A DNA stretch of 43,998 bases from Planctomycetota bacterium (GTDB lineage Bacteria > Planctomycetota > J058), in the NCBI GenBank assembly GCA_050186825.1, contig JBFWYD010000031.1, positions 1 through 43,998 of the forward strand, written 5' to 3'. This document shows positions 5,189-30,407 of this stretch, one piece after another (the first letter of the stretch is position 1; each line of letters opens with the position of its first letter). Below the pieces are notes generated by a model. It saw only the letters and a list, made by a program, of their open reading frames with translations, was not told the DNA's origin and did no database searches. The position numbers and the translations under genes were made by a program.

Positions 5189-6241
5189 TTAGCCGACCGA
5201 GGACGCCGCGAGGCTCTGGTGGCGCGAGCGGGTGTCGCGCGCCTTGGCCGCGGGCTGCTCGACCGGGGCCGGCTTGGCCGGGGCCGGCTTGGCGGGCGGC
5301 TCCGTGGCCGCCGGCTGCTGGTCCTCGGCCTCGCCGGTCGCGGCCTCGAGCTCGAGGTCCTCGAGCTCGTCCTCGTCGTCGTCGCCCTTCTTCCCGCCCT
5401 CGCGGCTGCGCTTGTTGTTCGCCTTGATCAGCTGCTGGGCCTTGTTGAAGGTGATCGGGGCCACGATCGGCTCGTGGCGCCCCTTGACGTGGATGTCCCC
5501 GAAGTGGACGCGGCCGATGTAGGTGTCGTTCTTGAGGATCCAGGAGACCCCCGCCCGCGACCACTGCTTGCTCCGCCGCGTCCTGAGGCCCTGCTCGTCG
5601 AGGAGCTTGATCAGCCGCTTCATGCTGCGCAGGCGCAGGTACTCGCGAAAGATCAGCTTGACGACCTCGGCCTCCACCTCGTCCGGCACCAACATCACGC
5701 CCTCGCTCGAGCGCTTGTCGTAGTCGCGCCGGTAGCCGTAGGGAGCGGGGCCGCTCTGGTGCTTGCCCTGGCGGGCCCCCTCCTCGCGACCCTTCAGCAG
5801 GCGCTGCGCGATCTCGCGCTTGCGCTCCACCTCGTCGCTCTTGCGCGCCGCGACCTTCTTCGGCTGGCGCGCCTTGTAGTCCTCGACGATCGCCCGGAGC
5901 TGGCGGGCCGTGTCGTCGTTGGCGACGAGCACCCGCTTCCCGGCGTTCCGCAGCTCCTCGACGGGGTCGAAGGTGAGCGTGCTGCACAGCCCGCGGAGGC
6001 GGCAGCCGGAGACGATCAAGACCGCCTCCCAGTCGCTCTCCTCCATGTCGTCCAGGATGTTGACGAGCCCTGCGCGGGTGTCCTGGGTGGGGGTCAACCC
6101 GTGGTCGGTGTGGACCTTCTCCAGCGCGAGCCCGGTGTGGGAGGCGAAGGCCTCCAGTCTTCGAGTCTGCTCCTCGAGCGAGGGGAAGCCCCCTTCCTCC
6201 TGCTCGAGGTAGCTGACTCGGGCGTAGGCGACGACCTTCAC
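5189..6241 (-). CDS. serine recombinase. It has a resolvase/invertase-type catalytic domain plus a large-serine-recombinase 'recombinase' domain, lacks the zinc-ribbon/coiled-coil tail, and ends in a Lys/Pro/Ala/Asp-Glu-rich C-terminus
   Basis: The N-terminus MKVVAYARVSYLEQ matches the YxRVS(T)xxQ catalytic serine motif, and the downstream R..L.......D.L.V...RL.R block is present (TRAGLVNILDDMEESDWEAVLIVSGCRLRG). The recombinase-domain signatures APYGYRRD and ILKNDTYIGR follow. The protein is 350 aa with an acidic/KPAPA tail. The GTG start lies 7 nt after the MamK-like gene's stop. Confidence 0.8.
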   Translation of the reverse strand: MKVVAYARVSYLEQEEGGFPSLEEQTRRLEAFASHTGLALEKVHTDHGLTPTQDTRAGLVNILDDMEESDWEAVLIVSGCRLRGLCSTLTFDPVEELRNAGKRVLVANDDTARQLRAIVEDYKARQPKKVAARKSDEVERKREIAQRLLKGREEGARQGKHQSGPAPYGYRRDYDKRSSEGVMLVPDEVEAEVVKLIFREYLRLRSMKRLIKLLDEQGLRTRRSKQWSRAGVSWILKNDTYIGRVHFGDIHVKGRHEPIVAPITFNKAQQLIKANNKRSREGGKKGDDDEDELEDLELEAATGEAEDQQPAATEPPAKPAPAKPAPVEQPAAKARDTRSRHQSLAASSVG

Positions 6242-6248
6242 CGGTCGG

Positions 6249-7337
6249 TTAGCGCAGCTGCTCCCAGGCCTCGACCGGCATGTCGTAGGCGATCTTGAGC
6301 GCCCCGTTCGCGCCGGCGTAGACGGGCTCCTGCACCGGACGGACCTTGCCGCCGCCGTAGCCCTGGAGCGCCTCCTCGAGCGCGCGGTCGAGGCCGTGGA
6401 TGCGGCTGCCGCCGCCGGCCAGGATCACGTTGTTGCGCAGGCGGTCCTGGAACTCGGGGTCGAAGGTCGAGATCAGGCGGTCGACGGCCTCGACGATCGG
6501 CTCGACGATCCGGCTGCAGCCCTTGCGGACCTCGGCGGTCACGTCGAAGGCCTTGGGGCGGCCGCGCACGGGGAAGGTGACCATCACGGGCTCGGCGGCC
6601 TCGGTCACGAAGGCGTGCTTCTCCTTGATCTCGCGCACCATGTTGATGTTGAAGCTGGCGTCGGGGCAGCGGCCCTTGAACAGCTCGAACAGCTGGTGGT
6701 CGATGAAGTCGCCGGCCTGGGTCAGCGTGACCTGGTCGTCCTCGTCGGGCATCGAGCCCTTCATCCGGCAGAGGTCGGTGGTCCCGGCGCCGATGTCGAT
6801 CACCAGGCAGTCGTGGAGCCGGTCCATCCCGTAGGCGACCGAGAAGGGCTCGCTGCAGATCACCACCGAGTCGAGCACCTCACGGGCGGCCTCGATGATC
6901 GACTGCTTGTTGTGGATCGAGGCCTGCGCGGGGCAGCCGATCACGCCGTAGACGAGCTGGCCGGGCTTGGGGCGGGCCAGGCTGACCGCGTGCTGGATCA
7001 GGGCGCGCGCGGCCTCGAGGTTGGCGCTCACGTCCTCGCTCGGGGCGCCGGTCGAGTCGGAGTGCTTGATCACGCCCTTCTCGAGCGGGCGGTAGAGGTC
7101 GAGGGCCAGGCGGTGCGCCATGGCGTCGTCCCCGAACAGCACGTCGCGCTGGAGCAGCTTGCGCGAGACCACGTCGCGCGGGTAGCCGACGATGCTGCTG
7201 ACCGTCTCCCGCACGCCGTTGCTGGCCGAGATCGAGGTCCGCGAGGTGCCGAGGTCGATGCCGACGTAGAGGATCGAGTCGCTCTCGCCCTTCCGGTAGT
7301 TCAGGCGGTCCTGCGCCGCGCTCTTCTGCTTCTCCAT
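6249..7337 (-). CDS. actin-fold ATPase, MamK-like (MreB/ParM/MamK superfamily)
   Basis: Actin-fold signature motifs appear in order: phosphate-1 VGIDLGTSRTSI, connect-1 GVIGCPAQAS, phosphate-2 LVIDIGAGTTDLC, and adenosine/connect-2 ILAGGGSRIHGLDRALEEAL. Local blocks (IVGYPRD, CSEPFSVAYGMDRL, DEDDQVTLTQAGDFIDHQL) resemble MamK more than MreB or ParM, as far as I can recall. The start is ATG 7337-7335 (M27 of the tracker ORF) with a GGGGGAAG RBS 6 nt upstream. Confidence 0.85.
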   Translation of the reverse strand: MEKQKSAAQDRLNYRKGESDSILYVGIDLGTSRTSISASNGVRETVSSIVGYPRDVVSRKLLQRDVLFGDDAMAHRLALDLYRPLEKGVIKHSDSTGAPSEDVSANLEAARALIQHAVSLARPKPGQLVYGVIGCPAQASIHNKQSIIEAAREVLDSVVICSEPFSVAYGMDRLHDCLVIDIGAGTTDLCRMKGSMPDEDDQVTLTQAGDFIDHQLFELFKGRCPDASFNINMVREIKEKHAFVTEAAEPVMVTFPVRGRPKAFDVTAEVRKGCSRIVEPIVEAVDRLISTFDPEFQDRLRNNVILAGGGSRIHGLDRALEEALQGYGGGKVRPVQEPVYAGANGALKIAYDMPVEAWEQLR

Positions 7338-7392
7338 GATGTCTTCCCCCTGGGTGTTCAGCTCTGTTGGGTTCGTCGTCGTCTCGTGCGGC

Positions 7393-8166
7393 CTACGCCC
7401 GACGGCGGAGGCCAAGGTTCTGGTCGATCAGTCCGTTGAGCAGGCCACCCCCCCGGCGGCGCGCTCCCGAATTCGTTCCCAGCCCGCTGGCGGCGGGCGG
7501 CGGCGGCGGCGGCTCAGGGACCGCCGCTGGCGCGGGCGGCGGCTCCGCCCCGCGCGGCTCGGCCGCGTGGGTCCGCCCCGCCGCGGTCGACTGGCCCGGG
7601 TTGCGGAGCTCCACGTTGGCCCGCACCAGGCCCGCCAGGAGGCCCCCGCCGCCGCGCGGCATGGGCCGCGTCGTGTGTCCCGCGCCCTGGCTGGGCGCGC
7701 CCAGGCCCGCGGGCCGGCTCGGCGCCGCAGCCAGCGGCGTCGCGGCGACCGGCGCAGCGGCGACCGGCCCGTGCCCGAGCGGCGCGGCGACCGGCCCGTG
7801 CCCGAGCGGCGCGGCGACCGGCCCGTGCCCGAGCGGCCCGGCGACCGGCGCCGCGGCGGCGCGCTCGAGCCGCGCGGCGGCGCGCTCGAGCCTGGCCGCG
7901 ACCGCGGCCAGGCCCTCGCGCTCGCTGGCGCGCTCGGCCAGGCGCGCCTGCGCCTCGGCCAGCCGCTGGGCCAGCGCGTCGCGCTCGGCGCGCAGCCGGT
8001 CCAGCTCCGCCTGCGTCGGGCCCCCGCGGAGCTCGGCGCGCAGGCGCGCCACCTCCTCGCGCAGCCGGTTCCGCTCCTCCGAGAGGCGGGCGATGATCTC
8101 CACCGCGGCCCGCGGCAAGTCGCGGGTGCGGGAGAGGATCGCGGGGCTGCGCTCGAGGGTGGCCAC
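7393..8166 (-). CDS. coiled-coil plus Ala/Pro-rich repeat protein (candidate filament-associated adaptor)
   Basis: A GTG start follows a GGAG that overlaps the upstream stop (TGAGGAGCGAACACGTG). The N-terminal ~110 aa form a heptad-like coiled coil (ERNRLREEVARLRAELR...LAEAQARLAERASEREGLAAVAARLERAAARLERAAA). Then come three tandem GHGPVAAPL repeats, an Ala/Pro linker, and two copies of a GGGLL.GL...N..LR motif. Only the 3' ~775 nt of the 509-aa tracker ORF look protein-like. Confidence 0.5.
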   Translation of the reverse strand: MATLERSPAILSRTRDLPRAAVEIIARLSEERNRLREEVARLRAELRGGPTQAELDRLRAERDALAQRLAEAQARLAERASEREGLAAVAARLERAAARLERAAAAPVAGPLGHGPVAAPLGHGPVAAPLGHGPVAAAPVAATPLAAAPSRPAGLGAPSQGAGHTTRPMPRGGGGLLAGLVRANVELRNPGQSTAAGRTHAAEPRGAEPPPAPAAVPEPPPPPPAASGLGTNSGARRRGGGLLNGLIDQNLGLRRRA

Positions 8167-9615: not shown

Positions 9616-11433
9616 GTGATCGAGGTCCAGGCCCTCACCCAGCGCTACGGGAGCTACGAGGCGGTCCGCGAGCTGAGCTTCGCCCTGGGCGCGGGGGAGG
9701 TGGTCGGCTTCCTCGGCCCCAACGGGGCGGGCAAGTCGACGACCCTCAAGGTGATCGCGAGCTTCCTGGCCCCGAGCGCCGGCCGGGTCAGCGTCGGGGG
9801 CTGCGACGTGGCCCGCGACCCCCTCGGGGTCCGGGCCCGGCTGGGCTACCTGCCCGAGCACTGCCCCCTCTACGAGGAGATGCTCGCGCGCGAGCTGCTC
9901 GACTTCGCCGCGCGCGTCCGCGGCCTGAGCCGCGCCGAGCGCGCCGCGGCCCGCGCGCGCGTGGTCGAGCGCTGCCGGCTGGAGGAGGTGATCGAGCGCC
10001 CGGTCAGCGACCTGAGCAAGGGCTACCGCCAGCGCCTCGGGCTGGCGACCGCCCTCCTGCACGACCCCCGGATCCTGGTCCTCGACGAGCCGACCAGCGG
10101 GCTGGACCCGAACCAGGTGCTCGAGATGCGTGCGCTCGTGCGCGAGCTGGGCCAGGAGCGCACGGTCCTGTTCAGCAGCCACGTGCTCTCCGAGGTCGAG
10201 GCCACCTGCGAGCGCGTGGTCGTGATCCACCGCGGCCGCCTGGTCGCGGACGACGCGGTGGCGAGCCTGGCGCGGCGGATCACCGGAGGGGCGCTCGACG
10301 TCCGTGGGGCGGAGGCCGAGGCGGTCGCAGGCGTCCCAGGCGTGGCCGAGGCCGTGGCGCTCGCCGACGGGCGGGTGCGCGCGCGGCCGCGGGCCGGCGT
10401 CGAGGACCTCGCGGCGCGGCTGTTCCGCTGGGCGGCCGGGAGCGGCCGGGTGCTCGTGGAGATAGCGCCGCAGCGGGTCACGCTCGAGGACGTGTTCGCG
10501 GCGCTGACCGCGGATTCGAAGGCGGTCGCTCCGCAGGCTACGGGATCAGGAGCCGCGGAGGCGGCTCTCCCTAGCGCGGCGCAGAGCCGCAGAGCCGCAG
10601 AGGGGCCCTCGCAGGAGCCGGCGCGCGACTCGGAGACGCCGGATTCGCAGGCGGCGGCTACCGAAGCGGGGGGGACAGGAGCTGCGAAGGCGTTGGATTT
10701 CAGCGCAGAGATCGCAGAGAGCGCGGAGATCGGTGGGTGTGAGCGAAGGCGCGGCTCCGATCCGTCGGGTGAAGGAGAGAAAACGAGGGAGAGAGACTCG
10801 GATTCGGATTCGGCTTCGGACTCCCCCCCGGCCTCGGATGCGACCCCTCGCTCACACCCCGCGATCTCCGCGATCTCTGCGATCTCTGCGCTGAATATCA
10901 ACGCTGTCGCACCCCCTCACGACCCCGAGCTCGCAGCCCGCTCCGGCTGTGAGTCTCCGGGCTCGGTCTCGGACTCGGACTCGGTCTCGGACTCGGACTC
11001 GGACTCGGACTCGGTCTCGGACTCGGTCTCGGTCTCGGACTCGGACTCGGCCTCGGCCTCGGCCTCGGCCTCGGACTCGGCCTCGGCCTCGGCCTCGGAC
11101 TCGGACTCGGTCTCCGCCTCGGACTCGGACTCGGACTCGGACTCGGACTCGGACTCGGACTCGGTCTCGGACTCGGACTCGGACTCGGACTCGGACTCGG
11201 ACTCGGACTCGGACTCGGACTCGCCCTCGGACTCGCCCTCGGACTCGGACTCGCGCCCTCGCTCACACCCACCGATCTCCGCGGACTCTGCGATCTCTGC
11301 GCTGAATAACAACGCTGTCGCACACCCTCGCGATCCCGACCTCGCAACTCGCCCCCGCTCAGAGTCTCCGGCCTCGGCCTCGGCCTCGGCCTCGGACTCG
11401 GACTCGGCTTCGGACCCGGAGCGCCCCACGTGA
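9616..11433 (+). CDS. ABC transporter ATP-binding protein (GldA-like; ABC-2/gliding-motility-associated type) carrying a ~300-aa low-complexity C-terminal extension encoded by a repeat element
   Basis: Walker [11 protein letters not shown]-loop, ABC signature LSKGYRQRL, Walker [13 protein letters not shown] and H-loop SSHVL are all present. The ATPase fold ends near LEDVFAALT (about nt 10530). The ORF then continues without a stop through an inverted-repeat element and (GACTCG)n arrays that encode (SD)n, up to TGA 11431-11433, which overlaps the GTG of the next gene. Confidence 0.8.
10540..11430. repeat. composite dispersed repeat (copy 1): unit A (~10540-10750), unit B (~10845-10975), (GACTCG)n-type hexanucleotide microsatellite arrays (~10958-11260 and ~11378-11425), and a second partial unit B (~11255-11385)
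   Basis: Near-identical sequence (>90% by eye) recurs at 17735-18400. Unit A is gcagaggggccctc...gattcgcaggcggcggct(a/g)ccgaagcggggg...gttggatttcagcgcagagatcgcagagagcgcggagatcg. Unit B is cgc(t/c)cacaccc(a/g)ccgatctccgcg.actctgcgatctctgcgctgaata(t/a)caacgctgtcgcac.ccctc.cgatccc and occurs 3 times in the window. The tcggactcggac tracts are directly visible. Confidence 0.9.
10699..10895. repeat. ~50-bp imperfect inverted repeats flanking a ~95-nt loop (potential large hairpin of the MITE/RPE type)
   Basis: The left arm (ttcagcgcagagatcgcagagagcgcggagatcggtgggtgtgagcgaagg) and right arm (cctcgctcacaccccgcgatctccgcgatctctgcgatctctgcgctgaa) are reverse complements with about 3 mismatches. The same architecture recurs at ~17897-18127. 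Confidence 0.8.
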
Positions 11434-13727
11434 GGGTCCCGCTGGCGATCGCGCGCCGCGAGCTAGGCGCCTTCTTCAAGCGACCCGCGGCCTGGGTGTT
11501 CCTGGCGGCCTTCCTGCTCGTGAGCACCGTGCTCGGGCTGCGCGGCTTCTTCGAGCGCGGGGTCTCGGACCTGCGCGACTACTTCCTCGGGCTGCGCTAC
11601 GCCTTCGTGCTGCTCGCGCCCGCGGCCGCCATGCGCCTGTGGGCCGAGGAGCGCCGGGCGCGGACCCTCGAGCTCCTGTTCTCGCTGCCCGTCTCGCCCG
11701 CGCAGGCCGTGCTCGGCAAGTACCTCGCCGGGGCCGCGGTGCTCCTGATCGCGCTCGCGCTCGGCGCGTGCCTCCCGCTGAGCCTCGCGCCCTACGCCAG
11801 CTTCGACGCGGGGCAGCTCGCGGCGGGCTACCTGGGCGCCTTCCTGGTCGCGGCCACCTACCTCGCGCTCGGGACCCTCGGCTCCGCGCTCAGCTCGAGC
11901 CAGGAGGTCGCCTTCCTGAGCGGAGCCCTGGCCTGCCTGCTGCTCAACCTGCTCGGCGACCCGCTCCTGACCGAGCGCGCGGCGGCCTACCTGCCCGAGC
12001 CCTGGGTGCGCGCCGCCGCGCGCTTCGCGGTGGGCGAGCACTTCGACGCCCTGACCCGCGGCGTGCTCGAGGCGCGCAGCCTGGCCTACTTCGGCGGCGT
12101 GAGCGCGCTGGCCCTGTTCCTGACCGTGCTCCTGGTCGAGCGCCGCTCGCGCGGGCGGGCCGAGGCCGCGCTGGCCGCCGTGCTGGCGCTCGCGGCGCTC
12201 GGGCTGTGGCTCGACCTCAGCGCGCAGCGCGCGCTCGCCGCGCGCGTCGACCTGACCGTCGAGCGGCGCAACTCGCTCGCGCCGCCGACCCGGGCGCTGC
12301 TCGCGCGCGTGCGCGACACCCTGGTGGTCCGGGCCTACCTCTCGCAGCACAAGCTGCCCGAGGCCACCCGGCCGGCCACGCGCCGGCTGCTCGACCTGCT
12401 CGAGGACCTCGAGGCCGCGGGCGGCGGTAAGGTCAAGCTCGAGGTCGTGGACCCGGTCACCCCCGAGCTCCAGGCGGCCGCCGAGCGCGAGGGCGTCGAG
12501 CGCTGCCAGTCGGAGATCGGCGGCGACCTGCGCACGCTCTACGCCGGCGTGGTCCTCTTCTACGGCGGGCGCCCCCCGGCCGCGATCCCGGTGGCGATCG
12601 ACCCGCGCCGCAACCTCGAGGTCGACCTCGCCCAGGCGATCCGCGGCCTGCTCACGCCGCGCCCGCGGGTCGGCGTGGCCGGGCTGGGCCGCGAGCAGTA
12701 CGAGGAGGCCCTGGCCCCGCTCCGCAAGGTGGCGACCGTCGAGGCGCTCGACCTCGCCCGGCTCAAGGCCGTCCCCGAGGGGATCGCGGCCCTGATCTAC
12801 ACCGCGCCCGTCCCCCCGCGCGAGCGCGAGGTCTACGTGCTCGACCAGTACCTCCAGCGCGGCGGGCGCCTGCTGCTCCTGCTCGAGGGCTACGGCCAGC
12901 CGCCCCAGGACCCCTGGCTGCGGCATCCCTTCGAGCTCGGCGCGCTCCAGCGCGCCCTCGAGGCCTGGGGCGTGCGCACGAGCCCCGCGCTCGTGGTCGC
13001 GGCCTCGCGCCGGACCTACACGATCCAGACCGAGCGCGGCCGCGTGCAGGCGGCCTACCCCTGGTTCCTGATCCCCACCCAGGGGACCCTCGGTCCGACC
13101 AACACCGCGGTGCTGCCCTTCGCGGTCGAGGTCGAGGCCCCGAAGGGCGAGGTCCTGCTCGCGACCGAGCCGGGCTGGGCGCTGCCCGGCCAGCAGCGGG
13201 TCGAGCCCACGCGCGCGCTCCAGCTCCCGGGCGACGAGCGCCGCCCGCGCGCGCTGGCGGTGGGCGTGCGCGGCGAACTCCTGAGCCCGTGGGCCGGCGG
13301 CCCGGGGCCGGTGCTCCTGCCCGAGGCCGAGGGCGGCGAGGACCCGCTCGCGATCCCGCTCGCGAAGCCCGCGGGCCCGGCCGCCCTGGCCGTGGTCGGC
13401 GACACCGACTTCCTGCGCCCGACCTTCGCCGCGCAGGGCCAGGCCGCCGCGCTCCTCCAGAACCTGGTCGAGTGGTGCCTCGACGACGGGGACCTGGCCC
13501 AGGTCCGCGCGCGGACCGCGCCGCCCGCCCTCAGCCAGGTGCCCGAGTCCGGGGTCGATCGGCGCGAGCTCTGGGCCTGGCGCTGGAACCTCGGCCTGGC
13601 CGCGCTAGTGCTCGCGGGCGGGCTGAGCTGGCTGGCCGCGCGGCGCGTGCGCCGCGATCGGGCCGCCAGCGCGCAGCGCGCGCGCCTCGCGCCACGCCCA
13701 GCGCCCCGGACCGGGGAGGCGGCGTGA
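11430..13727 (+). CDS. fusion of an ABC-2 family permease (GldF-like, N-terminal ~240 aa with 6 TM) and a GldG-like ABC-transporter auxiliary component (C-terminal ~520 aa with N- and C-terminal TM anchors)
   Basis: N-terminus [21 protein letters not shown]... with multiple hydrophobic helices, typical of an ABC-2 permease. It is followed by a TM anchor ([15 protein letters not shown]) and a long soluble domain, with a terminal anchor ([21 protein letters not shown]), as in GldG/ABC_transp_aux proteins. It sits immediately downstream of the ATPase with a 4-nt GTGA overlap. Confidence 0.75.
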
Positions 13728-15166
13728 GGCAGCTGCTCTCCCGTCGCGCCCTCTCCGGCCGCGTCCTCGCGCTGGCCGCGCTCGTGGCCCTGCTGGCCGG
13801 GGCCCGCGCGCTGGTGTGGGCCACGGCCCGCCCGCGCGACCGCGACGTGGGGGCGCTGCTCCTCGACTTCGACCCCGCGCAGGTCCAGGCGATCGAGCTC
13901 CAGCGCGGCGCCGACCGGGTCCGGCTCGAGCGCGCCGGGGCGGGCTGGGTGGTCGCGAGCCACGGCGGGCTGCCGGCCCGCGAGCGCGCGCCCGAGCTCC
14001 TGCTCGAGCGGCTGCGCGGCTGGCGGATCGAGCGCCTGGCTGGCGACGACCCCGCCCGCCACGCGGCCTGGATGGTCGACGCCGCGCAGGCCCGCCAGGT
14101 CCGGCTGCTCGCGGGCGACGGGCGGCGGCTGGCCGAGGTGTGGGTCGGCCGGGTCACGGGGATCGCGGCCGACCTGGTGCGCGAGCAGGGCTTCCGGATC
14201 GACCTCGACAAGCTCGGTCTGTTCGTCCGCCGCCTCGGCGCTCCCCCCCTCGGCCTCGGCCCCCTCGGATCGGGCGCCGACGCTTCGGACGGCGGGGCCG
14301 ACCCGCGCACCTTCGTGGTCAACGACTTCCTGACCCGCGAGCTCGACCCGCGCCCCGAGGTGTGGTTCGTGCGCCCGCTGGTGCGCGGGTCGCGCGAGCG
14401 CGCCTCGCGCCTCGTGGTCCGCCGGCCGGGCGCGCCCCCCCTCGACCTGCGCCTGACGCCCCCCCCGCACATCGAGGGCGAGGCCCGCCCCATCGACTTC
14501 CCGCGCGCCTTCGGGGCCCTGACCGCCCTGTTCCTGCTCGAGGCGCTGGGCCCGGCGGGAGGGGCCCCACCCCCCGACGCCATCGAGCTCGAGCTCGAGG
14601 TCCAGGGCGAGGCCCCGCAGCGGCTCCGGCTCTGGTCGCGCGGGGCGCGCTGGTTCCTCGCCACCGAGCAGCTCGCGGTCGAGGTGCGCGCCGGCGACGC
14701 GGCCCAGGCCGCCGCGCTCACCCGCCGCGAGGCGCTGCTCGCGCGCGAGCTGCTGCGCCTGGTCCCCGACCAGATCTCGCGGCTCCACTGGCAGCGCGGC
14801 GCCGAGGAGCGCAGCCTCGTGCGCCATCTCGACCGCCCCTGGGACGGGATCGCCACGGGCTGGTGGCATCCCCTCGCCGCGCGCGAGGTCGAAGCCGCCC
14901 AGGGGACCGCGCTGCTGACCTCCCTGTGCGCGCTGCGCCTCGCCGACTGGATCGTGGACCCGGCCGAGCTCGCGCGCGCGCTGGGGCCCGAGCCCGACGT
15001 CCTGGCCCTGAGCGGCAGCGTCGGGCGCGAGGAGCTGCGCTTCGGCCCGGTCCAGGACGGCCGGCGCGCCTGCACCACCTCGCGCCTCCCCGGCGCCGGC
15101 GGCTGGGTGGACGCGGCGGCCGTCGACGCGCTCTGGTCGCGCCTGCGCGCGCTGACCGGGGACTGA
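13724..15166 (+). CDS. DUF4340-like protein (commonly encoded downstream of GldG-like auxiliary components), N-terminal signal-anchor
   Basis: The GTG at 13724 overlaps the upstream TGA (GTGA), with a GGGGAGG RBS 5 nt upstream. The N-terminal hydrophobic anchor is VLALAALVALLAGARALVW. The composition is protein-like despite being Arg/Ala/Leu-rich. The family assignment is by genomic context and rough resemblance only. Confidence 0.5.
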   Translation: MRQLLSRRALSGRVLALAALVALLAGARALVWATARPRDRDVGALLLDFDPAQVQAIELQRGADRVRLERAGAGWVVASHGGLPARERAPELLLERLRGWRIERLAGDDPARHAAWMVDAAQARQVRLLAGDGRRLAEVWVGRVTGIAADLVREQGFRIDLDKLGLFVRRLGAPPLGLGPLGSGADASDGGADPRTFVVNDFLTRELDPRPEVWFVRPLVRGSRERASRLVVRRPGAPPLDLRLTPPPHIEGEARPIDFPRAFGALTALFLLEALGPAGGAPPPDAIELELEVQGEAPQRLRLWSRGARWFLATEQLAVEVRAGDAAQAAALTRREALLARELLRLVPDQISRLHWQRGAEERSLVRHLDRPWDGIATGWWHPLAAREVEAAQGTALLTSLCALRLADWIVDPAELARALGPEPDVLALSGSVGREELRFGPVQDGRRACTTSRLPGAGGWVDAAAVDALWSRLRALTGD

Positions 15167-15268
15167 AACCGGCTCGCGGGCTCCGACCCCGAGCGCTGCG
15201 TGCGACCGGGAGGCGTGGTCCACTCGTGCCCGCGGAGCCGGTCTCTCGCCCTCCGCCGAGGAGTCCGC

Positions 15269-16477
15269 ATGGTTCGGTGGTTCGAGCTGGGCCTGGCGCT
15301 GTTCGTGGTGCTCCTGGCCGCGGCGGCCCTGCTCGAGGTCACGCGCCGCGCGGGCCCGCGCGAGCCGCAGGAGCTCGAGGTCGAGCTGTGGCTCGACCCC
15401 AACCAGGCCGCCGCGGCGCAGGCCACGAGCGTGCACCTGGCCGGCGAGTTCAACGACTGGAGCCAGACGGCCTCCCCGCTCGAGCGCGGCCCCGACGGCG
15501 TGTGGCGGATCACCGTCCGCCTCCGTCCGGGCGTCTACCGCTACAAGTTCGTGGCGGGCGAGCGCTGGGTCTCGGACCCGCACAACCCGCTGCGCGAGCC
15601 CGGCGGGCATCGCAACTCGGTGCTCGTCGTCGGCTGTGTGCCGGTCCCGGACCTCGGCAGGGAGGCCGAGCCGCGCCCCCGCGAGGGGCGCCCCGGCGCC
15701 TTCCAGCGGGTCGAGGCGGCCGTGCTGCCCGCGCCGCCCGGGGGCCTCGAGCCGCGCCCGCTCTACGTCTACCTCCCGCCGAGCTACGAGCGAGAGCCCG
15801 CGCGCCGCTACCCCGTCCTCTACCTGCACGACGGCCAGAACGTGTGGTCGGACCCCGACGGCTGCTTCGGGCACGGGGGCTGGTACCTGGACACCACCTG
15901 CGAGCGGCTGTGGCGCGAGGGCGCGCTGCCCGAGCTGATCCTGGTCGGGGTCCCCAACAGCCCCGCGCGGATGCGCGAGTACGCGCCCGACCTCGCCGAG
16001 CCGCGGGCCGCGCCCTACCTGCGCTACCTGGTCGAGGTCGTGAAGCCCTTCGTCGACGGCCGCTACCGGACGCGCCCCGAGCGCGCGCACACCGCCATCA
16101 TGGGCAGCTCCCTCGGCGGGCTGATCTCCTTCGTGGGCGCGCTCTCCTACCCGGAGGTGTTCGGGCAGGCCGCCTGCCTCTCGTCGAGCTTCTGGTTCGA
16201 GGACGCGGGTGGCCGCGACGCCTTCGAGCTGCTCGCGCGGACGGGCCGCCCCGAGGTGCGCCTCTACGTGGACTCCGGTACGGCCGGCCCCAGCCAGGAC
16301 GGCGCGCCCGGCACGCGCAAGATGGCGGAGGCCTTGCGCGCGGCCGGCTGGGAGGGGCCCGCCTTCGAGCACTTCGAGGCCGAGGGCGCGACCCACGACG
16401 AGGGCGCCTGGCGCGCGCGCGCCGAGCGCCCGCTGCGCTTCTTGTTCCCCGTCGCGGCGGGTGGTCAGGGGGGGTAG
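15269..16477 (+). CDS. secreted/membrane-anchored esterase (putative esterase / esterase-D / enterochelin-esterase-like alpha/beta hydrolase) with an N-terminal CBM48/E-set-like carbohydrate-binding module
   Basis: ATG with a GAGGAG RBS, then a signal/anchor (MVRWFELGLALFVVLLAAAALL). The CBM48-like block is SVHLAGEFNDWSQ...GVWRITVRLRPGVYRYKFVAGERWVSDPHNP. The esterase hallmarks are YVYLPPSY...RYPVLYLHDGQN and a GSSLGG nucleophile elbow (GxSxG). Confidence 0.75.
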   Translation: MVRWFELGLALFVVLLAAAALLEVTRRAGPREPQELEVELWLDPNQAAAAQATSVHLAGEFNDWSQTASPLERGPDGVWRITVRLRPGVYRYKFVAGERWVSDPHNPLREPGGHRNSVLVVGCVPVPDLGREAEPRPREGRPGAFQRVEAAVLPAPPGGLEPRPLYVYLPPSYEREPARRYPVLYLHDGQNVWSDPDGCFGHGGWYLDTTCERLWREGALPELILVGVPNSPARMREYAPDLAEPRAAPYLRYLVEVVKPFVDGRYRTRPERAHTAIMGSSLGGLISFVGALSYPEVFGQAACLSSSFWFEDAGGRDAFELLARTGRPEVRLYVDSGTAGPSQDGAPGTRKMAEALRAAGWEGPAFEHFEAEGATHDEGAWRARAERPLRFLFPVAAGGQGG

Positions 16478-16486
16478 CTTCGACGC

Positions 16487-18429
16487 GTGCCCCGCTTCGT
16501 CCCCTGCCGGATCAGCCACCTCCTCGGCGAGCTGAGCGCGCTCCTGACCGAGCGCGACCGCGGGGCCTTCTACGCGCTGGCGCGCATCGTCGAGGCCTAC
16601 TACCACCACGCCGCCGGCGCCCAGACGCGCATGGCGGAGGAGCTCTACGCGCCCTTCGACCCCGACAGCGAGACCGTCCCGACCGTGGCCCCGCTCGGGG
16701 CCGACCCGGTCGGGCGGCTCTACGGCTGGCTGGACGGGCTGTTCGAGCGGGCCAACTTCGAGCGCGTCTCCCAGGACACGCTCCTCTCCGAGGCCGACCA
16801 GGAGGTGCTGACCACCTTCGAGATCGACCCCGACCTGCGCTCGGTCGAGCGCCTGGCCGTCTACGTGCGCGGGAGCGGGACCAAGGCCGTGCGCCTGCGC
16901 AAGGCCAAGGCCTTCTTCCGGCTCGAGGAGGCGGAGCAGCCCACCTACCGCCGCGTGGCGATCGTGGTCCGCACCGCGCACGACCCCTACGTGCTCCTGA
17001 AGATGTTCAAGGACGTGCCGCGCACCGACGTGGAGCTGCTGCTGCCCACCGTGCGCGTGAAGATGAAGCTCCTCGACAAGCTCAAGCTCTCGGGCACGGG
17101 CGGCGCCGCGGCGCTCTCGACCTGGAAGGTGCTCCGCCTCGCCTACACCTACGCGCCCACCATCACCAAGCTCCTGGCCGTCCCCTTCAAGCTGTTCCTG
17201 CTCCCGATCGCCTTCCTTGTCACGGCCTTCTACGGCGGCAAGACGGTCCTCGACTACGCCAAGATCCGCAGCAGCTACGTGACCGCGCTCGCCGAGCACC
17301 TCTACTCCATCACCCTCGCGAGCAACCGCGCCGTGCTCGGCCGCCTCGCCGCGCAGGCCGGCGAGGAGGACACCAAGGAGGCGCTGATCGCCTACGCGCT
17401 GCTGCTCGGCGCCCCCGAGGGGCTCTCCGCCGCCGCCCTGCGCGAGGCCGCCGAGGCCCTGGTCTGGGACCGCTACCGCGCGCGCGTCCGCTTCGACGTG
17501 GAGGACGCCCTGCGGAAGCTGAGCGAGCTCGAGCTGATCGAGCCGCTCGACGAGCAGCCAGGTGGCCCCGTGGCGCGCGCGGTCGACCTCGACGAGGCCC
17601 TTCGCCGCGTGGACAAGTCCTGGGACGACCTCTACAGCCCGCCGCCCCGCGAGACGCGGCTCTGGCGGCTGCTGCGGCGGAAGGAGCTCGCCGCGGGGGA
17701 GACTGCCGATTCGGAGGCGGTGACTGGCGAGGCGGAGGGATCAGGAGCTGCAGGGGCGGTTCAGCCCAGCGCAGCGGCGCAGAGGCGCGGAGACGCAGAG
17801 GGGCCCTCTCTGGAGCAGGCGCGCGACTCGGAGACGCCGGATTCGCAGGCGGCGGCTGCCGAAGCGGGGGGAACAGGAGCTGCGCAGGCGTTGGATTTCA
17901 GCGCAGAGATCGCAGAGAGCGCGGAGATCGCCAGGAGTGAGCGGAGGGGGGGCTCCGCAGCCCAGTCGGATCGGGACGAACGGACGGGCACGGGCACGGG
18001 CACGGGCACGGGCACGGGCATCCCAATGTCGAACTCGGACTCGGACTCGGACTCGCCCTCGGACTCGAAGTCGCGCCCTCGCCCACACCCACCGATCTCC
18101 GCGAACTCTGCGATCTCTGCGCTGAATAACAACGCTGTCGCACACCCTCGCGATCCCGGCCTCGCAACTCGCCCCGGCTCAGAGTCTCCGGCTTCGGCTT
18201 CGGACTCGGCCTCGGCCTCGGCCTCGGACTCGGACTCGGACTCGGTCCCGGACTCGGATTCGGATTCGGATTCGGATTCGGATTCGGCCTCGGCCTCGGC
18301 CTCGGACTCGGACTCGGACTCGGACTCGGACTCGGATTCGGATTCGGATTCGGACTCGGCCTCGAACTCGGACCCTGAAGCCGCGTCGGAAGACCCTGAC
18401 GACGTGCGGCCGATCCGGACGGTGCCGAG

Positions 18430-18433
<4 letters not shown>
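16487..18433 (+). CDS. DUF3754-like (TMEM143-like) membrane-associated protein. The core ends near nt 17700 and is followed by a ~240-aa low-complexity tail encoded by the second copy of the dispersed repeat
   Basis: The core of ~400 aa has a conserved-looking central hydrophobic hairpin (LLAVPFKLFLLPIAFLVTAFYGGKTVLDYAKIRSSYVTALAEHLYSITLASNRAVLGRL). The family call is from recollection only. The ORF continues stop-free through unit A, (GGGCAC)6 encoding TGTGTG, unit B and (GACTCG)n encoding (SD)n, to TGA 18431-18433, which overlaps the TTG start of the downstream kinase. Confidence 0.55.
17735..18400. repeat. composite dispersed repeat (copy 2): unit A (~17735-17950), inverted-repeat arms (~17897-17940 and ~18076-18127), (GGGCAC)6 (~17985-18020), unit B (~18073-18200), and a (GACTCG)n-type array (~18190-18370)
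   Basis: Direct nucleotide comparison with 10540-11430; the reading frame relative to the element is the same as in copy 1. Confidence 0.9.
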
Positions 18434-21621
<3,188 letters not shown>

Positions 21622-28880: not shown

Positions 28881-30407
28881 TCACCTCCCCGGCGGAGCGG
28901 CGAGGACGGCGGGGCGGCCGGTGACCAGGGCGTAGGTCCAGGGGTCGGCGAGGTGGGGCTCGCCCGGGAGGGCCTGGGTCGGGCACTCGGGCTCGCGCGT
29001 GCGACCGCGCATGCTGCGGCCGGCGGCGTGGCCGAGGACGGCGAGCCAGGCGCCGAGGAGCGCGGCGAGCAGCCAGCGTTGGGTGGGAGCGTGGCGGCGC
29101 CAGCGGACCAGGAGCTCGACGGCGGCGAGGGGGGCGAGGGCGCTGAGCGGCGCGATCGTGAAGCGCGTCGGGTCGTCGGTGGACCAGACCACGATCGTGG
29201 CGGCTGCGAGGCCCGCGGCGGCGAGGGCGAGCAGGCGACCGGCCGGGGCGCGCAGCGAGAGCAGGGCCAGGGGCAGGACCAGGAAGGCGTTCTTGGGCAG
29301 GAGGGCCGCCTCGAGCTGGTGCGCGAGGTTGCGCGCGATGCCCGCGAGGATCTGGGCCAGGCCCGCGGGCGGGGCGCTGCGCGCGGGGTCCATCAGGTCC
29401 TCGTAGCGCGCGGCGCGCAGCAGGTCGAGCTGCGGGGCGAGCACGCCGGTCGCGGCGCAGAGCGCGGCGTTGAGCGCGGCGAGGAGCGCGAGCAGCGCGA
29501 GCGCACGGCGGCGCCGGCCGCCCGCCCAGTGCCAGAGCACGAGCAGCGGGACCAGCACCCAGGCCTCGGGACGCGCGAAGCGGGCCAGGCCGGCGCAGAG
29601 GGCCTCGCCGAGGAGCGTGCCCCGACCGGCCGGGTCGAGCTCTCCCTGCCAGGCGAGGCGGAGGGCGGCGAGGACGAGCACCAGCCCCAGCGGCTCGGCC
29701 CAGAGGTGCACCGAGGCGCGGACCAGGAAGGGCAACCAGGCGACGGTCAGCCCTCCGAGCAGGGAGCACATGACCAAGGGAGCGCCGCGCAGACCGCGGC
29801 GCCGCGCGAGCTCGCCGCCGAGCGAGGCCGCGAGGACGGCGGCGAGCGCGGCCAGAGCCACGCCGCTGAGCTGGAGCGCGGCCGGTGGCCAGCCCGGCTC
29901 CGGGCGGACCAGGGGCGCGAGCAGCCACGGGTAGAGGGGAGCGCGCTCGCCGTAGGCCTCGTGGACGGCCGGAGCCTGCACGTCCGCGGCCTGGAAGCGG
30001 ACGCGGATCGGCAGGACGAAGCCCTCACCGGCGCGCAGCGAGCGCGCGATCAACAGGTTCTCGGCCGCATCGGGGCTGTGGTGGAAGTCGCGCAGGGCAG
30101 GCTCGAGGCGCGGGAGGACCGCGAGCACCGCGACCAGGAGCGCGAGCGCGATCCTCGGCAGGAGCCCAGGTCCATCCCGCGACACGGCCGCGAAGTCACG
30201 CGACCTCGACGCGGCCGCGGAGTCGCTCGACCTCGACACGGCCGCGAAGTCACGCGACCTCGACGCGACCGTGCTCTCACTCGACCTCGACGCGGCCGCG
30301 GAGTCGCTCGGCCTCGACGCGACCGTGCTCTCACTCGACCTCGACGCGGCCGCGGACTCGCTCGGCCTCGGAGACGCACGCGCGGGCTCGGGGATCGGGC
30401 TCGACAC
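28881..30407 (-). CDS. polytopic membrane glycosyltransferase-like protein (GT39/PMT_2/ArnT-like) with an N-terminal Ser-rich tandem 9-aa repeat region
   Basis: The C-terminal ~440 aa are extremely hydrophobic with at least 9 predicted TM helices. The first-loop motif is LRDFHHSPDAAENLLIARSLRAGEGFVL, resembling the D-E/A-A...Y/L loop of PMT_2/ArnT proteins. The start is assigned to GTG 30407-30405, 8 nt after the DUF58 stop, which places the 27-bp x7 repeat in-frame. An alternative start lies near 30193, after the repeat. The upstream 324 codons of the tracker ORF are Arg/Pro junk antisense to the DUF58 gene. Confidence 0.5.
   Translation of the reverse strand: MSSPIPEPARASPRPSESAAASRSSESTVASRPSDSAAASRSSESTVASRSRDFAAVSRSSDSAAASRSRDFAAVSRDGPGLLPRIALALLVAVLAVLPRLEPALRDFHHSPDAAENLLIARSLRAGEGFVLPIRVRFQAADVQAPAVHEAYGERAPLYPWLLAPLVRPEPGWPPAALQLSGVALAALAAVLAASLGGELARRRGLRGAPLVMCSLLGGLTVAWLPFLVRASVHLWAEPLGLVLVLAALRLAWQGELDPAGRGTLLGEALCAGLARFARPEAWVLVPLLVLWHWAGGRRRRALALLALLAALNAALCAATGVLAPQLDLLRAARYEDLMDPARSAPPAGLAQILAGIARNLAHQLEAALLPKNAFLVLPLALLSLRAPAGRLLALAAAGLAAATIVVWSTDDPTRFTIAPLSALAPLAAVELLVRWRRHAPTQRWLLAALLGAWLAVLGHAAGRSMRGRTREPECPTQALPGEPHLADPWTYALVTGRPAVLAAPPGR
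30184..30372. repeat. 27-bp tandem repeat x7 (minisatellite; consensus approximately gcggccgcggagtcgctcgacctcgac, alternating with the variants acggccgcgaagtcacgcgacctcgac and gcgaccgtgctctcactcgacctcgac)
   Basis: Seven contiguous 27-nt units are read directly. The period is divisible by 3. In the minus gene frame they encode 9-aa units (SRSSESTVA, SRPSDSAAA, SRSRDFAAV). Confidence 0.9.

Follow-up and report, generated by a model that had tools for sequence, protein, structure and literature searches.

The question raised by this locus is why a gene encoding a DUF3754-like protein should run on for 245 extra codons and then stop exactly on the start codon of the Ser/Thr kinase gene that follows it. 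The gene lies at positions 16,487-18,433 of a 43,998-nt stretch of DNA (hereafter the window) from a Planctomycetota bacterium (assembly GCA_050186825.1, contig JBFWYD010000031.1), in which an ABC ATPase gene (9,616-11,433) carries a similar extension. We consider it probable, with real room for doubt, that the extension is a copy of a lineage-specific, non-autonomous, selfish palindromic repeat, similar to the Rickettsia palindromic elements (RPEs) and equipped with microsatellites that leave the reading frame undisturbed; the element is probably selfish DNA and not a functional protein domain. It is a repeat that folds into a long hairpin, is absent from orthologues, lacks a coding signature, continues the reading frame of its hosts and occurs in at least four copies in one genome. 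These are copy 1 (10,510-11,415, in the ATPase gene), copy 2 (~17,696-~18,397, in the DUF3754 gene), copy 3 (in the gene for protein P0001) and copy 4 (in the gene for protein P0002). They were counted in a metagenome-assembled genome (MAG), GCA_050250455.1 (~75-80% GC), where the DNA of the window comes from contig JBFWOT010000064.1; protein relatives of the window genes are annotated as Planctomycetota MAGs. Copies 1, 2 and 3 are available as DNA (n = 3), and copy 4 is known from its protein and was placed in the MAG by accession.

With the microsatellites excluded, copies 1 and 2 are ~86-95% identical in pairwise alignment. A 184-nt block (10,576-10,759 against 17,774-17,957; pairwise alignment and repeat finder) is 91% identical, the left arms are 89% identical and the right arms 84-95%, the upper value being that between the right arm of copy 2 and the distal right arm (R2) of copy 1. 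At the left edge, 17,692-17,776 is 73% identical to 10,497-10,581 and 64% identical to the internal unit A2 (repeat family D3). A reading made from the letters alone, hereafter the sequence-only reading, had proposed that the DUF3754-like gene holds a second copy of the modular element in the ATPase gene, and the alignment, repeat families D3 and D4 and inverted repeats I2-I6 bear this out. Five matches to the 21-mer TTCAGCGCAGAGATCGCAGAG lie in the window, all of them in the arms of copies 1 and 2 (0 expected from shuffles), and a 33-mer taken from unit A has exactly two. Inverted repeats of the two copies span 77-118 nt at 71-87% complementarity, giving predicted hairpins of -164.7 kcal/mol in copy 2 (z = -7.6 versus shuffled sequence) and -169.4 kcal/mol in copy 1 (z = -8.3). 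In copy 2, 17,881-17,957 pairs with 18,066-18,142 (I6) and stem complementarity is 75%, compared with 87% between the left arm of copy 1 and R2 (I3); the same left arm is 80% complementary to the proximal right arm R1 (I2). The duplicated right arm of copy 1, which the sequence-only reading had not described, suggests either a nested or duplicated structure or a recent exchange between copies. The parts of both copies and their host genes are as follows, with periodic tracts as called by Tandem Repeats Finder (TRF) and GC3 denoting GC content at third codon positions.

16,487-17,695, + strand: native DUF3754 coding region, residues 1 to ~403 (Pfam DUF3754 at residues 159-281; GC3 0.99)
17,696-17,823, + strand: copy 2, unit A1, an additional left-type arm, degenerate and holding GGGATCAGGAGC, that starts at or near GATTCG (17,708) (family D3, alignment)
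17,824-17,958, + strand: copy 2, left arm, consisting of unit A2 and the core TTCAG(CGCAGAGNN)3 (inverted repeat I6; fold z)
17,959-18,064, + strand: copy 2, hairpin loop with (ACGGGC)6.2 at 17,984-18,020 and, at 18,029-18,074, a (TCGGAC)-like tract; aligned with copy 1, it shows an insertion of 30 nt (TRF; alignment)
18,065-18,196, + strand: copy 2, right arm and unit B (inverted repeats I4 and I6)
18,200-18,373, + strand: copy 2, (TCGGAC/TCGGCC/TCGGAT)29 microsatellite, read as a Ser-Asp/Ser-Ala (SD/SA) repeat (TRF period 6, 29 copies, 90% match)
18,374-18,433, + strand: copy 2, degenerate hexamers (to ~18,397), then the presumed native DDVRPIRTVPS* (sequence; GC3)
18,430-21,621, + strand: Ser/Thr kinase with a TTG start (Pfam Pkinase at residues 12-259, E = 1.4e-48)
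9,616-10,509, + strand: native ABC ATPase (GldA-like), residues 1-298 (TIGR03522; GC3 0.98)
10,510-10,760, + strand: copy 1, unit A1 and left arm (alignment; I2, I3)
10,761-10,833, + strand: copy 1, loop with (TCGGAT)3.8 (TRF, 10,798-10,820)
10,834-10,957, + strand: copy 1, proximal right arm R1 and unit B (I2)
10,958-11,237, + strand: copy 1, (CGGACT)~47-49 microsatellite (TRF, 10,958-11,253: 49.3 copies, 90% match)
11,238-11,368, + strand: copy 1, distal right arm R2 and unit B (I3)
11,369-11,433, + strand: copy 1, (CGGCCT/CGGACT)8 tract, then the native PERPT* with its GTGA overlap (TRF; sequence)

The seven arms (two left and three right in the window, two in copy 3) align as one unit of ~140 nt, the centre of which is an invariant stretch of ~50 nt, ATTTCAG followed by CGCAGAGAT, CGCAGAGNN and CGCGGAGATCG, that is, a run of 9-nt units; the core can be written TTCAG(CGCAGAGNN)3. 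The basic element is therefore the unit, a loop and the inverted unit: an inverted duplication with a variable loop and GAYTCG/GSCTCG hexamer tracts, of which a GAYTCG tract forms the right border. Copies 1 and 2 have an extra, more degenerate left-type unit upstream (unit A1, which holds GGGATCAGGAGC), and the second right-type unit of copy 1 lies beyond its tract of 47-49 hexamers. Homology in copy 2 begins at ~17,696-17,705 (GATTCG), upstream of the start at 17,735 that had been proposed, and the proposed extension of ~240 codons comes to 245. Copy 3 has a loop of ~25 nt (locus L048, 10,576-10,599), copy 1 one of 73 nt and copy 2 one of 106 nt, so that the view of the loop as variable stands; its description as a cargo site does not, as the variation consists of microsatellite expansion. 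In the loop of copy 2, (ACGGGC)6.2 is 100% perfect and is read in the frame of the gene as TGTGTGTGTGTG, or (TG)6, as had been noticed. This tract is indeed an extra one, but it does not take the place of the tract in copy 1, since the copy 2 loop also holds its (TCGGAC)-like tract, and it is not a unique acquisition because the loop in P0002 has a TG tract too. Wherever copies 1 and 2 differ in length they do so by multiples of 3 (by 3 nt, by 33 nt in the loop and once more by 3 nt), because the element is built of 6-nt and 9-nt modules.

Both host proteins are extended where their relatives end. The two open reading frames (ORFs) encode 605 residues (9,616-11,433) and 648 residues (16,487-18,433), with in-frame extensions of ~250-300 residues. 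All 47 homologues of the DUF3754 protein, retrieved with its first 410 residues, are 380-433 residues long, cover 92-99% of the query and lack the tail (47/47). The nearest orthologue (P0003, 75% identity) ends ...TRLWRLLRREEDEAG (RLLRREEDEAG), and at the position of that stop the window protein reads ...TRLWRLLRRKELAAG (RLLRRKELAAG) before running into the element. For the ATPase, positions 3-301 of the 301-position NCBIfam GldA model TIGR03522 align to residues 2-298 of 605, so that the model ends two codons before the element, whose GATTCG begins at codon 300. No arms or hexamer tracts were found in five related Planctomycetota loci (67 kb in total). Since homologues end where the element begins and related loci are without it, the tails are lineage-specific additions.

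At the other end, the sequence-only reading was right that both extensions are in frame and that both ORFs end at a stop/start overlap. The DUF3754 ORF ends in TTGA, overlapping the kinase TTG at 18,430; no other start is possible from a TGA at 18,397 up to the G-loop of the kinase (kinase-frame TGAs lie at 18,376 and 18,397). The ATPase ORF ends in GTGA (11,430-11,433), leading into an ABC-2 permease/GldG-like gene (identified as a permease by Pfam). Codons to the right of the element are again GC3-rich: 5 of 5 in PERPT*, and 10 of 11 in DDVRPIRTVPS* from 18,398, compared with 4 of 8 before 18,398. This pattern fits insertion of copies 1 and 2 a few codons upstream of native stops that already overlapped the downstream starts.

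Composition separates the element from the genes that carry it. Host genes have GC3 of 0.97-0.99 and GC at second positions of 0.45-0.58, compared with a flat profile over the three positions (0.65-0.77; GC3 0.67-0.73) in the element without its microsatellites. Copies 1 and 2 differ by 83 substitutions, spread almost evenly over codon positions 1, 2 and 3 (26/26/31), and 45 of the 59 differing codons are non-synonymous (14 of 59 synonymous). Flat composition and even substitution indicate that the element evolves as non-coding DNA. It is nonetheless free of stops in one of its six frames, the other five carrying 1-5 stops each. Over the whole window, GC by codon position (GC3 >=0.96) sets real genes apart and marks the borders of the repeat insertions; wrong-frame or wrong-strand ORFs of >1,000 residues are common at 75-80% GC, an example being that at 13,055-17,299 on the - strand (1,414 residues).

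A profile of both tails run against 1.84 billion representative proteins matched P0001 and P0002 only, both of them from the same MAG. P0001 is a 429-residue peptidase C39_2 protein without a homologue in the PDB, encoded on contig JBFWOT010000017.1 (locus L048), and its copy 3 (~10,452-10,740) is a minimal palindrome of ~290 nt with a short loop holding (GACTCG)2. Both flanks of copy 3 have GC3 of ~1.0 and share one coding phase, with a drop within the element; copy 3 is therefore an in-phase interruption of coding sequence and not a 3'-end event, which contradicts any strict form of the preference for gene 3' ends that had been suggested. P0002, a 364-residue KS-N-like protein, encodes KGSGAAGG and GTGTGTGMGMVSDSASVSVSVS and has a TG tract in its loop (GTGTGTGMGM). 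The element thus stands at a minimum of four copies in unrelated hosts on at least two contigs of one MAG, with 29-49 hexamer units in the C-terminal tails and 2 in the internal copy 3. No further copy was found in the remaining 63 kb of the MAG that was read. Neither the tail peptide nor an arm-peptide alignment found a match in protein homology searches, which were swamped by low-complexity candidates and hence uninformative. The copy in P0002 also bears on GGGATCAGGAGC, proposed by the sequence-only reading as a target motif shared by the left junctions. The GSGAA within its KGSGAAGG stretch is what GGGATCAGGAGC encodes, a paralogue of the motif lies inside the element, in its second unit A (GGGGACAGGAGC / GGGGAACAGGAGC; family D3), and homology begins at least 30 nt upstream of it. 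It is simply part of the element, the very outcome on which that reading had said the proposal would fall.

Under the selfish-repeat explanation, copy 2 would have entered the DUF3754 gene among its last codons, which are not conserved, upstream of a native stop that overlapped the kinase start. In the only orientation and phase in which the element is stop-free, ribosomes would read through it to produce an acidic, disordered, Ser/Asp/Ala-rich tail of 245 residues, and the original TTGA junction, with any translational coupling to the kinase, would be kept. Replication slippage of 6-nt units, which the neighbouring hairpin possibly promotes, may account for later growth both in the loop ((ACGGGC)6 and (TCGGAC)n) and at the right end, with tracts expanding most where length is least constrained. 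Since every variable module measures 6 or 9 nt, such changes always leave the frame intact. Selection would act as a filter: copies that truncated a needed protein or disturbed a junction were presumably lost, leaving, as in RPEs, those whose open frame agrees with that of the gene in a region tolerant of them, for instance a C-terminal tail or a linker between domains.

Several observations weigh against this account. In a neutral simulation the translated frame was still stop-free after 83 substitutions in 21% of runs (p = 0.21), 26-32% of random frames of 740-940 nt are open in this genome anyway, and two in-phase copies would arise by chance with a probability of ~1/9; selection on frame, as the sequence-only reading had it, is plausible but without statistical demonstration. 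An in-frame bias is likewise not established, because the DNA-level reading of the MAG covers 65 kb and copies 3 and 4 were detected by a protein profile search, which sees in-frame copies alone. Translation of the tail is an assumption. Downstream of the gene, orthologous DUF3754 loci show no synteny with the window, which makes the ancestral DUF3754-kinase junction one that we infer, and the element borders given here are approximate. No target-site duplication or flanking direct duplication was seen at the three DNA-level copies (GAYTCG stands in direct orientation at both element ends and belongs to the microsatellite), and no transposase was found in the window.

Among known systems, RPEs are the closest analogue: palindromic repeats of ~100-150 bp found in frame in many unrelated Rickettsia genes (Ogata et al. 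2000, summarised in PMC10969869). Both are dispersed palindromes lying in frame in unrelated genes, with no transposase and absent from orthologues, and in RPEs the extra peptide is translated at tolerated positions (termini and linkers), as we propose here. The present element is RPE-like in being multi-copy in one genome, in its stable palindrome and in-phase insertion, and in its absence from orthologues (copies 1 and 2). It differs in its host, a free-living Planctomycetota MAG of 75-80% GC, in its size (~290 nt at minimum, 670-900 nt with extras) and in its integral 6-nt microsatellites (29-49 units), duplicated arms and the four copies now known. Membership of the Rickettsia RPE families themselves (RPE-1 to RPE-10) is ruled out by host phylum and size (290-900 nt), grounds that involve no sequence-level comparison with RPEs. 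[quoted passage not shown] The likeness to MITEs lies in a small, non-coding inverted-repeat element able to fuse with host ORFs; in contrast to MITEs, no target-site duplication, parent insertion sequence or short defined terminal inverted repeats were found in the DNA that was read, and the element forms a single long, imperfect palindrome over its whole length. Mycobacterial interspersed repetitive units (MIRUs) reportedly consist of 46-101-bp direct tandem units with small separate ORFs and no hexamer microsatellite, and are said to be intercistronic in operons, with a frame continuous with their neighbours, stop/start overlaps kept and a variable, frame-preserving copy number. The element shares with MIRUs the stop/start overlap with flanking cistrons (GTGA at 11,430-11,433; TTGA at 18,430-18,433), but it is a palindrome with 6-nt microsatellites fused to the upstream ORF, and is not built of tandem units.

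Of the competing explanations, the one that survives best is an RNA- or DNA-level function of the hairpin at operon junctions and the 3' ends of genes, where it would influence how stable the mRNA is, how it is processed or how much upstream relative to downstream product is made, in the manner of MIRUs or of repetitive extragenic palindromes and their mosaics (REPs/BIMEs), with read-through a by-product of the scarcity of stops at 75-80% GC. We regard this as unlikely, though deserving of weight. Very stable hairpins stand exactly at two operon junctions, where the stop/start overlaps are kept, and a core of ~40 nt, ATTTCAG(CGCAGAGNN)3, recurs in hairpins of other phyla. It was found in 41 metagenome contigs (GC 0.49-0.69, none of this lineage) and in several MAGs of other phyla, in hairpins that are mostly 2-40 nt past a stop codon or between convergent genes. 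Yet copy 3 sits within a gene, the likeness to these hairpins extends over only ~35-45 nt, and loop-proximal stem positions differ between copies without compensation, no convincing compensatory stem changes having emerged from the arm alignment. Rfam covariance models gave no relevant match at E <= 1 over 10,300-18,600, and no promoter-like or terminator-like sites were found. An RNA-level role of the junction hairpins is, moreover, compatible with the selfish-repeat reading and not exclusive of it.

REPs are extragenic sequences of 20-40 nt with GTAG/CGTC tags, associated with REP-associated tyrosine transposases (RAYTs) (PMC3733652). Like REPs and BIMEs, the two window copies are GC-rich hairpins near gene 3' ends within operons, and the related (CGCAGAGNN)n hairpins of other phyla are extragenic in the same way. 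Membership is ruled out, as the arms are 77-118 nt long and lie inside ORFs, the arm alignment holds no GTAG/CGTC tag and no RAYT was found in the window. The loci in other phyla were likewise rejected as the same element: with an nhmmer profile of the seven arms, similarity stops at the core. About 25 of the 41 contigs represent a single soil acidobacterial repeat family, a short intergenic hairpin in which the order of the arms is reversed. This multi-copy family of soil Acidobacteriota (GC ~0.52-0.55) has the form CCTCTGCGTATCTCTGCGATCTCTGCG-TTAAAAAGGCTATTTCAG-CGCAGAGATCGCAGAGATACGCAGAGG and matched no name in Rfam or in a literature search; the core also occurs in contigs of GC 0.58-0.69. 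Loci with core hairpins include L005 (860-960), L007 (10,570-10,660), L009, L014, L016, L018, L022 and L024, among others. The shared core may reflect common descent, a shared recognition motif or convergence. A 21-mer scan of genome contigs, in a collection without the window's own genome, gave five single matches in Nitrospira and Acidobacteriota MAGs. Those in Nitrospira (L001 3,160-3,180; L004; L015) lie just upstream of an ATG, at the 3' end of what appears to be a dnaX-like gene with an ATGA overlap to a putative YbaB/EbfC-like gene, and were set aside as probable chance matches in coding sequence.

A second alternative denies the copies mobility: they would have arisen by segmental duplication or gene conversion between microsatellite sites, or by loss of a stop codon and read-through into a pre-existing intergenic repeat. 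The small number of known copies (four) and the lack of a target-site duplication or transposase are in keeping with this, and hexamer tracts together with GC-rich microhomology at the left junctions of copies 1 and 2 (CGCGG.G..GAC.GC.GATTCG) could mediate illegitimate recombination. The alternative is nevertheless improbable. It has to account for four unrelated insertion contexts on at least two contigs and for copy 3, a clean minimal palindrome with coding sequence on both sides. Loss of a stop would take several base changes at codon 299 of the ATPase gene, which is GCG, and read-through would make both exact NTGA overlaps a coincidence (roughly (1/12)^2), overlaps that insertion upstream of a native junction explains directly.

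Less probable again is a third alternative, in which the tail is a selected protein module, an acidic, disordered SD-repeat domain serving as spacer, solubility tag or modification site, that was spread by recombination and whose palindrome is incidental. The frame is open in all four copies and gives the same peptide frame each time (... ISAxSAISAL), and SD-repeat regions do occur in real proteins. Ser, Asp and Ala make up 50-60% of the tails, which carry a net charge of -36 to -45; with the homologue alignment as input, AlphaFold2 returned predicted local distance difference test (pLDDT) values of 29-43 for residues 404-648, compared with 70-90 in much of the native part, so that the DUF3754 tail is predicted to be disordered apart from a short predicted helix at residues 472-483. 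Against such a module stand the missing GC3 and codon signature where every real gene reaches at least 0.96, the even spread of substitutions with its largely non-synonymous codon differences, and the absence of the tail from all 47 DUF3754 homologues. The hosts are not related to one another (cytoplasmic ABC ATPase, membrane DUF3754 protein, C39 peptidase, KS-like protein), and inverted arms of 78-118 nt have no explanation at the protein level. The only NCBIfam matches of the tails, to the SD repeats of Sdr/Clf proteins, are of low complexity, confined to the SD tract, and score 24-40 bits, far below cut-offs of 999-2500. Staphylococcal Sdr/Clf proteins do have a variable-length (SD)n encoded by an 18-nt or 6-nt periodic repeat, a resemblance of low complexity only. 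Assignment to these MSCRAMM (microbial surface components recognising adhesive matrix molecules) adhesins was rejected, the matches being below curated cut-offs, with no signal peptide, A domain or LPXTG anchor, in hosts that are cytoplasmic or membrane enzymes. Finally, assembly artefact, with repeats collapsed or mis-joined at the junctions, is very improbable: the DNA does come from a MAG, with repeats of 0.7-0.9 kb that include a microsatellite of ~290 nt, and the neighbourhood downstream of DUF3754 differs from that in orthologues, but identical products of 605, 648 and 429 residues occur in two assemblies on contigs of different lengths, the copies are distinguishable at 86-95% identity, and the coding phase is continuous across copy 3.

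Elsewhere in the window, a serine recombinase gene (Resolvase and Recombinase domains, 350 residues; 5,189-6,241, - strand) lies ~3-4 kb upstream of copy 1, with no evident link to the repeat. Next to it is an actin/MreB-like gene, and the stretch (5,189-7,415, - strand), which is lower in GC (0.69-0.71), may be the remnant of a mobile element. Collections of plasmids and phages yielded no match to the element except one that was microsatellite-like. Just downstream of a DUF58 gene (- strand), at another gene junction, positions 30,180-30,370 hold ~7 copies of a 27-nt tandem repeat (78-90% match, higher-order periods of 54 and 81), the unit of which is a multiple of 3 and which contains CTCGGAGACGC, a sequence that the left arm of the element also carries at its outer end. 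A different 27-nt repeat (7,757-7,849; 3.4 copies, 98% identity) encodes GHGPVAAPL repeats within an ORF on the - strand (7,393-8,166) and is followed by two perfect copies of a 21-nt repeat (7,852-7,892). In the kinase gene, a perfect 18-nt repeat (19,277-19,319, 2.4 copies) encodes the LALGAG repeat of a predicted membrane-spanning region.

In-frame palindromic repeats are best documented in Rickettsia, with its reduced, intracellular genome; here what is probably the same strategy, combined with hexamer tracts that can expand, turns up in the large, very GC-rich genome of a free-living member of the Planctomycetota. If our reading is correct, selfish DNA within coding sequence would be more general than has been thought, and would offer a route to extended disordered linkers and tails from which new protein regions could be made. 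A bolder possibility, which we put forward tentatively and think unlikely as it stands, is that the element represents a new class of 'frame-safe' selfish DNA, assembled from nothing but 9-nt and 6-nt modules so that any slippage or recombination leaves the frame intact, that colonises last codons and coupled junctions and gives rise to hypervariable SD/TG tails; the ~40-nt core shared with Acidobacteriota and other soil phyla would then be a widespread module, as yet without a name, which some conserved enzyme or host factor recognises at gene ends. The shared (CGCAGAGNN)n core is a lead towards such a recognition module at gene 3' ends. For annotation there is a warning: in genomes of at least 75% GC, hundreds of codons at the end of a gene may be repeat DNA, for which a drop in GC3 provides a simple diagnostic.

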